A DNA stretch of 7,677 nt from a virus (Monodnaviria; Loebvirae; Hofneiviricota; Faserviricetes; Tubulavirales), in IMG/VR virus record IMGVR_UViG_2675903650_000001. One strand, 5' to 3'. The first letter of the stretch is position 1. Each line of letters opens with the position of its first letter. The position numbers and the translations under genes were made by a program. Below, piece after piece: positions 1-7,677 of the stretch. The notes under the pieces were generated by a model. It was given only the letters and a program-made list of their open reading frames with translations. It searched no databases and had not been told where the DNA came from.

Positions 1-1578
<1,578 letters not shown>

Positions 1579-1593
1579 CTGAATTTTTAACAT

Positions 1594-1599
1594 TGAGGA
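1594..1599 (+). promoter_or_regulatory. Shine-Dalgarno GAGGAG, 9 nt upstream of the ATG at 1609
   Basis: GAGGAG read directly in the sequence at an appropriate spacing from the start codon. Confidence 0.6.
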
Positions 1600-1608
1600 G
1601 TCTGATTT

Positions 1609-2034
1609 ATGAATCAAATTTACGACAGTTTTCCGTTTCCTTCCCCTGAGGGTTTTACCTCAGGCATGACAATGGCGGGATATTTTATTCACGTCACTGT
1701 CATAAATGATGAGGAGTTAAAACCCACGGGTTCTCATTATAACCCTGAGGCTAAACCCAAATATGCCATTGTTATTGCCTATCCGTATGAGGACCGAAAA
1801 TTAAAAGTCCGCCGTGAGGAGCATGAGCGCTTTTCCTGTACTGAGGAGGATTTTAAATTTTTTAATTCATGTCCTGATTTGCAGGGCAAACCTGTTTATC
1901 TCACGGTGGATGTTAACTCATGGGCGACAGGCTCAGAACGTCATGGTGTCTGGTATCGTTTTATTTCCGGCTCCATGAAACGTTTTGACGGTCAGCCGCT
2001 GGGTGCACTGCCCGCAGGTAAAGAAAAAGGCTGA
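1609..2034 (+). CDS. Hypothetical protein in the gV position; possible ssDNA-binding protein, but 141 aa versus ~87 aa for Ff gV
   Basis: ATG with strong SD immediately downstream of the rep gene. Its stop (TGA 2032-2034) abuts the next start. Function is inferred only from position in the module; no motif recognised with certainty. Confidence 0.45.
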   Translation: MNQIYDSFPFPSPEGFTSGMTMAGYFIHVTVINDEELKPTGSHYNPEAKPKYAIVIAYPYEDRKLKVRREEHERFSCTEEDFKFFNSCPDLQGKPVYLTVDVNSWATGSERHGVWYRFISGSMKRFDGQPLGALPAGKEKG

Positions 2035-2038
2035 TGAT

Positions 2039-2179
2039 ATGTCTGACGCTGATTTTCTGAACTTTGTTTTATTTGCTGCGCCTGCAATGATTTTATTTTC
2101 TTCAGGTTTTGGCATCGGAATAAAACTGATTCGCGCCTGTGACTCACAAAGCATTACTGTTCAGCGTTATTATGACTGA
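2039..2179 (+). CDS. Small hydrophobic virion protein, gVII-like minor coat protein (46 aa from ATG 2039)
   Basis: The ORF-track frame 1985-2179 contains an in-frame ATG at 2039 just after the upstream stop. Product MSDADFLNFVLFAAPAMILFSSGFGIGIKL... has one hydrophobic segment. Position between the gV-slot gene and gVIII. Confidence 0.5.
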   Translation: MSDADFLNFVLFAAPAMILFSSGFGIGIKLIRACDSQSITVQRYYD

Positions 2180-2342
2180 ATTTGATTTCAGCGGTGTTTT
2201 ATCCGCACTGAATTCTGGCGTACAGGACGGGGAGCTTTACTGGTCCGTTCTTTATGTCTGGATTGTCTGCTGGCTTCTTGGCTTTGGTCTTGGTGTTATT
2301 TTCACTCTGGTCTGCCGGATGTTCAGTGATGCTGTTAATTAA
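2172..2342 (+). CDS. Small hydrophobic virion protein, gIX-like minor coat protein (56 aa from ATG 2172)
   Basis: In-frame ATG at 2172 overlaps the upstream stop (ATGACTGA, 2172-2179), a translational-coupling arrangement. Product MTEFDFSGVLSALNSG...YVWIVCWLLGFGLGVIFTLV has a transmembrane-like segment. Stop TAA 2340-2342. Confidence 0.5.
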   Translation: MTEFDFSGVLSALNSGVQDGELYWSVLYVWIVCWLLGFGLGVIFTLVCRMFSDAVN

Positions 2343-2348
2343 TTTTAA

Positions 2349-2609
<261 letters not shown>

Positions 2610-2624
2610 TAGTTATTTAACGAC

Positions 2625-2647
2625 AGCGCCCTCCGGGGCGCTTTTTT
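2625..2647 (+). terminator. Rho-independent terminator downstream of the major coat gene
   Basis: Perfect GC-rich hairpin AGCGCCC-TCCG-GGGCGCT (2625-2642) with the T-run completing at 2647. Corresponds to the Ff attenuator between gVIII and gIII. Confidence 0.8.
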
Positions 2648-2660
2648 AATCATACCAGGA

Positions 2661-4025
2661 GTGTTTTGTTTGATTCACTTTATTATTCCGCTTCTGTTTT
2701 TGTTCTTTTCCTCGTTTTCTTTCGCTGAAGAGAAAGAAAATCCGGATGCACTTGTTCAGTGTGCAGGCCATTCATCCTGCAGGACAGATTATTCGGACGC
2801 GGGGACGTCGATTAAATTAGCCAGGGCGGCCGGTCATCTTTTCTGTGGTTCGGGCAGTTATGACGCATGTTCCGGAATAATTCATTATTGTGGTGTGCCA
2901 CTTTCCACGCCTGTTAATGCACCTTCGACTGTCGGGTCTTTTGTCCGTGCCCGGTGGTCAGCATATAAAGTCTGGGATTCAGACAAGCAAAAGTGGACAG
3001 CCTGCACCCTTGCTTTTCAGGGTGGTGAGGGGGATTTGACACCTGAATATAATAAGCCGCCAACTGACGAGATTTGTCTTTCTCGTCCGGTTCTTGATGG
3101 TATGACTTTTTCTGATGTTTATAAAGGTGATGACGGGACCCGTTATGTTAATGTGCAGGGGTGTATTTATGAGGCAACCGGCAATCCTCTTATTTGTAAT
3201 CCCGATGATGATACAGTTTGTACTGCCGACTGGAAACCAGTTGCTGTAGATCCTGCATTCTCCGATGGTAAGGAGGATGGCGGTAGCTCAGGTGGTGGCA
3301 GTTCCGGTGGTGGTAACCCAGGCGGCGGCAGTTCCGGTGGTGGTTCAGGTTCTGGCTCCGGTGGTTCATCCGGTAGCGGTGGCTCCGGCTCGGGTTCCGG
3401 CGGCTCATCCGGCAGTGGTGGTTCAGGTTCTGGCTCCGGTGGTTCATCCGGTAGCGGTGGCTCCGGCTCGGGCTCCGGTGGTTCATCCGGTAGCGGTAGT
3501 TCAGGTTCAGGATCCGGTGGCTCATCCGGCGATGACAATGGCTGGCTTGATGGTATTTTGGGCTGGTTAAAAACAATATGGGTGTCAGTGAATGATTTAA
3601 ATAATGCTTTTTCTGTTTCTCAGGCTGATATGAATAATGCATTAAATTCACTGGACAATGGTATTAAAGATATTAGTCAGAATATAGCTTCTTCTTTGCC
3701 TGATGGGGATTTCCCTTTAGGGGAGCTTTCGCATTATTTGCCAGGACAGGGAAGTGAGAGTCATGATAATAACAATTGGCTTACAGTTAATATTGACAAA
3801 CTGGTAAATACAAATAATGGAACTGCTCTTCCTTTTACTTTACAGTTTAGCTTTAATCTTCCGTTGATTGGCGCGATTAATTTCAAGATTGATACAAGCC
3901 ATTTTGCAAAAGCTTATGACGATTATGTTCGTTCTGTTCTTGAATATGCTATTTATATGATAACCATGTTACGCGTTTTTGTTATTTCTCGCCGTACATT
4001 ATTTGAACGTGAGGTAAAACTCTGA
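2661..4025 (+). CDS. Adsorption / minor coat protein (gIII-like): signal peptide, Cys-rich N-terminal domains, long Gly/Ser linker, C-terminal anchor domain
   Basis: GTG 2661 overlaps the AGGAG at 2657-2661; a TTG at 2670 with that AGGAG ~8 nt upstream is an alternative start. Hydrophobic leader ...LLFLFFSSFSFA, multiple Cys in the N-terminal half, GGSSGSGGSGSGS linker, hydrophobic C-terminus. Located after gVIII and before gVI. Confidence 0.85.
   Translation: MFCLIHFIIPLLFLFFSSFSFAEEKENPDALVQCAGHSSCRTDYSDAGTSIKLARAAGHLFCGSGSYDACSGIIHYCGVPLSTPVNAPSTVGSFVRARWSAYKVWDSDKQKWTACTLAFQGGEGDLTPEYNKPPTDEICLSRPVLDGMTFSDVYKGDDGTRYVNVQGCIYEATGNPLICNPDDDTVCTADWKPVAVDPAFSDGKEDGGSSGGGSSGGGNPGGGSSGGGSGSGSGGSSGSGGSGSGSGGSSGSGGSGSGSGGSSGSGGSGSGSGGSSGSGSSGSGSGGSSGDDNGWLDGILGWLKTIWVSVNDLNNAFSVSQADMNNALNSLDNGIKDISQNIASSLPDGDFPLGELSHYLPGQGSESHDNNNWLTVNIDKLVNTNNGTALPFTLQFSFNLPLIGAINFKIDTSHFAKAYDDYVRSVLEYAIYMITMLRVFVISRRTLFEREVKL
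3280..3530 (+). repeat. In-frame Gly/Ser-coding tandem repeat (flexible linker of the gIII-like protein)
   Basis: ggtggttcatccggtagcggtggctccggctcggg recurs at 3360 and 3438 (78-bp DNA period; 39-bp period at protein level). The region encodes only G and S, with a single N and P. Confidence 0.85.
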
Positions 4026-4384
4026 TGTGGGCCATTTTAGGTGCTTTTTTTGTTGATGTTGTTTTAAAATCACTACGTTTCATTGCAGGAGTTATCGGTG
4101 ATAAAGCTGTTGCATGGGCTAAGCTCCTTTCTTATCTTGGTCTTTGCTACACTTCATATTATGCTCTTGTATCTGCCGTCAATTTTATTATTCGTCAAAT
4201 CTCCGATGTTAATAAACTCGATGTTATTGTAGTTGCATTCAGTTACCTTCCTTTAAATATTCAGTACTGTTTTAATATCATCCTCCATGTTCAATTTATT
4301 TCATACATATATCTTTATAAGGATAGAGTGTATCGATTGGTTTATGATTTATTGAAATCAAATGGGCTTAATGTTGGCAAGTAA
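4025..4384 (+). CDS. Minor coat protein gVI-like (hydrophobic, 119 aa)
   Basis: ATG 4025 overlaps the gIII-like stop (TGATG 4023-4027). SD-like GAGGT at 4011-4015. Hydrophobic product in the Ff gVI position. Confidence 0.7.
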   Translation: MWAILGAFFVDVVLKSLRFIAGVIGDKAVAWAKLLSYLGLCYTSYYALVSAVNFIIRQISDVNKLDVIVVAFSYLPLNIQYCFNIILHVQFISYIYLYKDRVYRLVYDLLKSNGLNVGK

Positions 4385-4398
4385 TTTTGCGGGGGTAA

Positions 4399-5613
<1,215 letters not shown>

Positions 5614-5626
5614 GACAGAGGACACT

Positions 5627-6674
<1,048 letters not shown>

Positions 6675-6702: not shown

Positions 6703-7677
<975 letters not shown>

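Follow-up and report, generated by a model that had tools for sequence, protein, structure and literature searches.

In filamentous phages of the Ff group (M13/fd/f1), the slot after the replication initiator and before the gVII, gIX and gVIII genes holds gene V, whose product gVp is a small, cytoplasmic, beta-rich and aromatic-rich protein that coats progeny single-stranded DNA (ssDNA) and delivers it for assembly. gVp is an all-beta barrel of ~87 amino acids (aa) without an inter-strand helix, forms a dimer and also represses gene II translation. The Pf1 ssDNA-binding protein (SSB), gene 5 protein (PHROG 1144), has 144 aa, and the gammaproteobacterial inoviruses fs2 and VFJ (orf104), Dolos (SSB) and pre-CTX ('RstB-like') carry a ~104-aa protein of PHROG 5738 right after an initiator of the GPA (P2 gene-A) type. 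In the dif-integrating inovirus CTX-phi, RstB follows the Rep_trans-type initiator RstA; RstB has been described as having a region that resembles ssDNA-binding proteins and as required for integration (PMC3545932). Here we analyse ORF141, a 141-aa open reading frame (ORF) in the same slot of IMG/VR record IMGVR_UViG_2675903650_000001, a stretch of 7,677 bases (the window) that constitutes most of an Escherichia coli filamentous (inovirus) prophage with all genes on the + strand. We consider it somewhat better than an even bet that ORF141 is the ssDNA-binding protein of this phage, a sequence-orphan OB-fold analogue of gVp and RstB that coats progeny strands for assembly.

ORF141 in the gene V slot

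The features of the gene and its product are as follows.

1609..2034, + strand: ORF141, 141 aa, ATG at 1609-1611 and TGA at 2032-2034; PHROG 30648; putative ssDNA-binding protein
1595..1600, + strand: Shine-Dalgarno sequence GAGGAG, 8 nt before the ORF141 ATG, read from the sequence
1666..1908, + strand: residues 20-100, the confident core of the predicted structure (per-residue confidence score, pLDDT, 78-91)
1909..1986, + strand: residues 101-126, the most conserved stretch in the 19-sequence family alignment, with W105, G113, W115, Y116 and R125
1987..2031, + strand: residues 127-141, C-terminal tail DGQPLGALPAGKEKG, flexible and Gly/Pro/Lys-rich, variable in distant homologues, pLDDT <50

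An earlier note, made from the letters of the window, had described a well-initiated 141-aa ORF with a GAGGAG Shine-Dalgarno sequence here, and coordinates, codon count and spacing all agree with that description. ORF141 starts 30 nt past the stop codon of the initiator gene (Rep), and a 46-aa ORF starts 4 nt past its own stop. In pairwise comparisons with those E. coli variants divergent enough to measure, its ratio of non-synonymous to synonymous substitution (dN/dS) is 0.11-0.16, and the exact protein occurs on 195 contigs, named 'hypothetical protein' on all of them. ORF141 is a real gene under purifying selection; a chance ORF is ruled out by dN/dS together with conservation across genera. 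Other ORFs overlap it in other frames and on the minus strand (1779-1889, 1814-1978 and 1933-2154).

The genomic context provides the strongest evidence for the role of ORF141. The genes of the window run in the order Rep, ORF141, two ORFs with one transmembrane (TM) segment each, major coat protein, terminator, gIII-like, gVI-like, Zot/gI and secretin/gIV, so that ORF141, co-oriented with its neighbours and part of one transcription block with them, follows the initiator and precedes the gVII/gIX/gVIII genes. All other essential inovirus functions could be assigned in the window, and the SSB alone is missing; the rest of a complete 8.7-kb unit (L001) holds only a 62-aa reverse-strand ORF without a family match. 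We translated the window and 31 related loci in six frames and scanned the ORFs by phmmer and hmmsearch with M13 gVp, Pf1 g5p, CTX RstB, three fs2-orf104-type proteins and a hidden Markov model of the fs2-orf104 family. No second SSB-like ORF of these types was found in the window or in 30 of the 31 loci, the exception being L005, a Xenorhabdus-like contig considered below. The separate gV-like ORF that the earlier note had named, together with a structure lacking an OB-fold, as evidence against an SSB is absent from the window and from the complete L001 unit. Its placement of ORF141 in the gene V slot holds for the gene order, which is as in Ff, but not for the initiator, which is of the P2 gene-A type (PF05840) rather than Ff gII. 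Similarly, the protein is oversized against the 87 aa of its Ff counterpart but within the known inovirus range, given the 144 aa of the Pf1 SSB; with an SSB of that length known and an initiator that is not Ff-like, the apparent anomaly of 87 versus 141 aa dissolves.

The linkage of ORF141 to Rep is strict. In each of the 26 related loci for which upstream DNA is available, its homologue comes after a GPA-type Rep, and the pairing is kept in Xenorhabdus and on unclassified metagenome contigs at 25-40% identity, with a 57-69-aa ORF between the two genes in the distant loci. On L030, Rep is 99% and ORF141 96% identical while g3, g6 and Zot are undetectable, and L034 is similar; the pairing therefore survives swaps of the virion module, and ORF141 travels with the replication module. 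The comparison with equivalent ORFs that the earlier note had proposed thus gave a clear pattern: ORF141 homologues always follow a GPA-type Rep, and other phages with such a Rep carry an unrelated protein of phrog_5738 instead. Specifically, fs2, VFJ, Dolos, Vaf1, pre-CTX and V. cyclitrophicus phages encode homologous GPA-type Reps (~30-34% identity to the window Rep) followed by a different ~104-aa protein annotated as gene V or SSB, and the ORF141 family and phrog_5738 never co-occur in the scanned loci. In L003, the corresponding place of a neighbouring inovirus is taken by CTX_RstB, after Rep_trans. At least three unrelated families thus occupy the slot, which fits the expectation for non-orthologous displacement of one function.

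The same context bears on whether ORF141 could be cargo, that is, a moron or host-interaction gene for superinfection exclusion, virulence or defence. Its function is unannotated everywhere and its family is very narrow, as cargo would be, but its position is fixed within the replication/structural block across hosts at 25-40% identity, and purifying selection acts on it in step with the core genes. Inovirus cargo genes usually lie at genome ends or beside att sites, unlike ORF141, which also has neither a signal peptide nor a TM segment. We regard a cargo role as highly improbable.

Database searches place ORF141 in a narrow family. It matches PHROG 30648 ('unknown function') over its full length (E 1.2e-95, residues 1-141 on profile 1-141). 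The distant homologues P0012, P0018-P0020, P0022 and P0023 match this PHROG too, at E values from 8e-55 to 1.8e-7, and full-length homologues have 131-146 aa and 25-90% identity. Only E. coli relatives (53-90% identity) emerged from a word-indexed search of 5.8 billion proteins, and 9 proteins reached E <=1e-3 when 1.84 billion representatives were searched exhaustively with an HMMER profile, which shows the family to be saturated. Further members at 25-40% identity came from a second profile search; genome and plasmid searches added relatives in Xenorhabdus (four species), Citrobacter and Proteus, and others lie on unclassified metagenome-assembled contigs. By tblastn, plasmids gave close homologues only, in Citrobacter and Proteus records, and phages gave nothing significant. 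Judged from these searches, the ORF141 family is very small and unannotated.

Sequence and structure comparisons with ssDNA-binding proteins

ORF141 has no detectable homology to gVp, PHROG 5738 proteins, RstB or Pf1 gene 5 protein. PF02303 (Phage_DNA_bind) did not match ORF141 at E <=1 or any of 14 E. coli family sequences at E <=10, while M13 gVp scored E 1.3e-42 as a positive control; PF07459 (CTX RstB) likewise matched neither ORF141 nor the 14 sequences, with L003 RstB as the control at E 5e-26. Profile-profile comparison (hhalign) of the 19-sequence family alignment gave probabilities of 0.3% against gVp, 0.1% against CTX RstB, 0.2% against the fs2-orf104 family alignment, 0.5% against Pf1 g5p and 0.1-0.5% against the OB domain of E. 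coli SSB, the last with a sequence entered by hand. The SSB alignment paired beta4 motifs (KGSQVYIEG..W with QGKPVYLTV..W) at E 0.42, which we treated as not significant. PDB searches by phmmer and by family profile, and NCBIfam, were empty for ORF141. The earlier note had seen no assignable motif, and this was borne out, with no significant match in Pfam, NCBIfam or PDB sequence searches and a PHROG of unknown function; nor did Pfam, NCBIfam, PHROGs or PDB sequence searches yield the confident match to a non-DNA-binding family that it had listed as a counter-indication.

One sub-threshold similarity provides a lead only. Residues 85-122 of ORF141 align with positions 65-102 of the 108 in PF17426, 'Putative_G5P', at 13.5 bits (E 0.081), below the gathering cutoff of 25 bits and covering a third of the protein. 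Sub-threshold matches occur in 11 of the 14 E. coli family members (best E 0.006), which are related sequences and hence not independent. PF17426, itself uncharacterised, has been reported beside Rep_1 rolling-circle initiators in SPHINX/BMMF circular DNA elements (PMC10378824).

ORF141 is 14% aromatic with an isoelectric point (pI) of 6.1 and, lacking a signal peptide or TM segment, is predicted to be a cytoplasmic protein. From the 14 E. coli sequences, AlphaFold first gave a model of no use (pLDDT 39.6); with distant homologues added, the mean pLDDT rose to 61.8. The confident core of this second model comprises strand beta 20-31, a long loop, beta 52-62, beta 67-77, helix 79-86 and beta 95-100. 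The order beta-beta-beta-helix-beta is that of SSB/PriB-type OB folds, and gVp lacks the helix; in the ORF141 model the helix lies between strands 3 and 4. The best 50 Foldseek matches of the model in the PDB are all SSB/PriB-type OB-fold proteins (best E 0.026), and among viral models the matches that have names are for the most part SSBs (best E 0.013). Structurally, the core comes closest to bacterial SSB, PriB, mitochondrial SSB/Rim1 and baculovirus LEF-3, which share its beta1-beta2-beta3-helix-beta4(-beta5) order, and not to gVp. Residues 101-126, in which W105, G113, W115 and Y116 are invariant in the 19-sequence alignment, probably form a beta4-beta5 hairpin; a strand at 113-118 appeared solely in the low-confidence first model. 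With its three strands, helix and probable beta4-beta5 hairpin, the predicted fold looks closer to an SSB/PriB-type OB than to gVp, and the model and its structural matches lend weak but consistent and convergent support to an SSB-like OB fold. The structure prediction that the earlier note had suggested as a check was therefore partly answered, as residues 20-100 are modelled as OB-fold-like and residues 100-141 fall below pLDDT 50.

These results also bear on a mainly regulatory role, in which ORF141 would repress Rep at the transcriptional or translational level or switch between lysogeny and production. The gene V slot has a regulatory tradition, as Ff gVp illustrates, and small size and cytoplasmic location are compatible with such a role. 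However, Pfam, NCBIfam and PHROGs revealed no helix-turn-helix, ribbon-helix-helix or other regulator domain, and the core of the model is beta-barrel-like and not a helical DNA-binding domain. The strong Shine-Dalgarno sequence and position in the Rep-to-coat block suggest expression too abundant for a regulator, and complete copies already have a candidate repressor, a 62-aa ORF that lies upstream of Rep and diverges from it. A regulator is thus very unlikely, and the regulator and cargo readings both have little support.

Weighing the proposed role

Several observations weigh against ORF141 as the packaging SSB. For fs2 orf104 and phrog_5738, the SSB label itself derives from gene position. 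The family is not markedly basic, with pI values of 5.8-9.0 and 6.1 for this member. The model is moderate: across its five versions, pLDDT runs from 43.7 to 61.8, and confidence is low (pLDDT <50) for residues 100-141, where the most conserved positions lie. Finally, L005 carries, between the ORF141 homologue and the coat genes, a 63-aa ORF and then a tandem pair of paralogues encoding 144 and 111 aa (L005 5529-6280; E 2e-20 to each other). The shorter product of the pair, of 111 aa, resembles phrog_1199, 'single strand DNA binding protein', at E 3.5e-7 (PF02303 at E 0.028, sub-threshold). In L005 at least, the packaging SSB may therefore be a protein other than the ORF141 homologue. The four Xenorhabdus loci L037-L040, which have the most similar homologues, had no gVp-like match in the SSB scan, and in the ORF lists of L037 and L036 the ORF141 homologue directly precedes the small TM and coat genes. 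L005 therefore looks like a module swap that brought in a structural module with its own gene V. L005 nevertheless keeps alive the reading of ORF141 as another function of the replication module.

Two forms of that reading can be distinguished. In the first, ORF141 would be a Rep-linked accessory, a PriB/SSB-like OB adaptor with a part at the origin, in the priming of the complementary strand or in XerCD/dif integration of the ssDNA, which would be coated by host SSB or another protein. fs2, VFJ, Dolos, Vaf1 and pre-CTX lack the ORF141 family, so it is not a general cofactor of GPA-type Rep, and no other SSB candidate was found in the window, L036, L037, L006 or L002-L004; an accessory role would moreover be compatible with ssDNA binding, compare RstB. 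This is the main alternative, and we consider it unlikely. In the second, ORF141 would be a Rep-coupled PriB/SSB-like OB factor of one branch of GPA-Rep phages that is not the packaging SSB and acts on the ssDNA genome in some step apart from coating. It may steer complementary-strand priming at the plasmid-like, possibly primosome-type repeats of the phage, or present ssDNA attP to XerCD at dif, and a role of this kind would explain the coexistence with gVp-like genes in L005. We judge it quite unlikely. The earlier note had left the choice between an SSB and another function undecided; an SSB is now favoured, at a little better than even, and there is no match to a non-DNA-binding family, while homology to known inovirus SSBs was not detected.

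In the favoured model, ORF141 would be made from the Rep-to-coat gene block via its strong Shine-Dalgarno sequence and would bind the plus strand that rolling-circle replication, driven by the GPA-type Rep, displaces as ssDNA. Binding would probably involve F16, F26, W105, W115, Y116, K49, K51 and R125, probably as an oligomer, and coating would keep the strand from reconversion to duplex. The coated strand would then pass to the Zot/secretin assembly machine, where coat protein would replace ORF141, and ORF141 may also aid the XerCD/dif integration route of this phage group. For ssDNA binding, oligomerisation, packaging and integration alike, these roles are ones that we infer.

The prophage and its relatives

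The remaining features of the window are as follows.

1..1578, + strand: 3' 1.58 kb of the replication initiator gene (Rep), stop at 1576-1578, N-terminus outside the window
2039..2179, + strand: 46-aa ORF with one hydrophobic segment, gVII/gIX position, a coding sequence in RefSeq relatives
2172..2342, + strand: 56-aa ORF with one hydrophobic segment, gIX/gVII position, a coding sequence in relatives
2367..2609, + strand: major coat protein precursor, 80 aa, from position, signal-peptide-like N-terminus and weak PHROG matches
2625..2652, + strand: terminator-like G+C-rich hairpin followed by a T run (2625-2642 in a narrower delimitation), ending the Rep-to-coat block
2661-4025, + strand: gIII-like adsorption protein with a Gly/Ser linker (PF05357)
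4025-4384, + strand: gVI-like protein
4402-5613, + strand: Zot/gI
5627-6673: 339-bp tandem repeats, ~1 kb
6712-7677, + strand: secretin/gIV

The window Rep matches PF05840 (Phage_GPA, E 8.3e-49) and phrog_91, 'nicking at origin of replication' (E 1e-125), and is on these matches a P2 gene-A-type rolling-circle endonuclease as opposed to Ff gII. Its full-length E. coli relatives, annotated 'replication endonuclease', have 666 aa, which indicates that the window truncates the Rep N-terminus. The 46-aa ORF (2039..2179) had no family match in Pfam or PHROGs, and the matches of the coat precursor are weak (phrog_1646, 'major coat protein', E 0.017; also phrog_17608). At 3278-3529, the Gly/Ser linker of the gIII-like protein is built from 39/78-bp tandem repeats (~2.5-5 copies) and varies in length among relatives.

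By megablast, the window had no match in the phage collection and is 95-98% identical to prophages in E. coli chromosomes. The group shares the lifestyle of YpfPhi/CUS-1 (dif integration, tandem copies, ~8.7 kb), but an identity with YpfPhi/CUS-1 was dropped, as no Yersinia source name stood among the matches and cluster members listed and the megablast against the phage collection was empty. The dif-integrating lifestyle of CTX-phi, YpfPhi and CUS-1 has been described, and for YPO2275 no function beyond 'replication module' was reported (PMC4266046). In L001 (E. coli 100416, 1-16775), two copies of the 8.7-kb prophage stand in tandem, with a dif site (AGTGCGCATAATGTATATTATGTTAAAT, one mismatch) 54 bp beyond the end of the array, adjoining ydeP/ydeQ/ydeR, which points to XerCD-type integration as in CTX-phi and YpfPhi. 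A related prophage in E. coli O166:H15 JNE070796 (L011, 2212-3177) lies instead between hcxB and ybiB, not by dif-region genes, and an IS110-family 'RNA-guided transposase' gene stops 2 nt before its Rep start, suggesting that an alternative integration module exists within this phage group.

The group is strongly mosaic. Among L017-L035 (IMG/VR) and the E. coli megablast matches, Rep and ORF141 at 95-99% identity are combined with at least three unrelated g3/g6/Zot modules, and in L033 Rep is 75% but ORF141 93% identical, which implies recombination points to either side of ORF141.

Between Zot/gI and the secretin, the window (5627-6673) carries ~3.3 copies of 339-bp tandem repeats with a 312-bp variant, compared with about one repeat unit per phage copy in L001. 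The first 57 nt of each unit (CCGCTCGCCGCAGACCCAGCGACCGAACGTAGTGAGCGAGTGGTCGAGGAAGCGGAA) are 96.5% identical to a segment in ~300 small E. coli plasmids of 1.4-7 kb, which we take to resemble the ori-adjacent primosome assembly (PriA/n') site of ColE1/pBR322. The repeats may be an amplified complementary-strand origin; DNA folding revealed no unusual stability (z ~0). The window secretin has 321 aa against 402 aa in close relatives (6712-7677 versus L001 6747-7955), with an in-frame block of ~81 aa absent after '...EKLVSWV', and this copy of gIV may, from its sequence, be defective.

The finding is an incremental gain in annotation and a useful lead rather than a system of a new kind. Pathogenic Enterobacterales commonly carry inovirus prophages, whose replication modules are annotated almost wholly as 'hypothetical'; the element studied here is present in ~280 of 5,426 complete E. 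coli genomes, counting any shared part. A function for PHROG 30648 would complete the gene map of the dif-integrating GPA-Rep inoviruses of E. coli and Xenorhabdus. With an SSB role, ORF141 would be a further example of non-orthologous displacement at the gene V slot and would offer a small SSB-like protein for comparing how filamentous phages sequester ssDNA.
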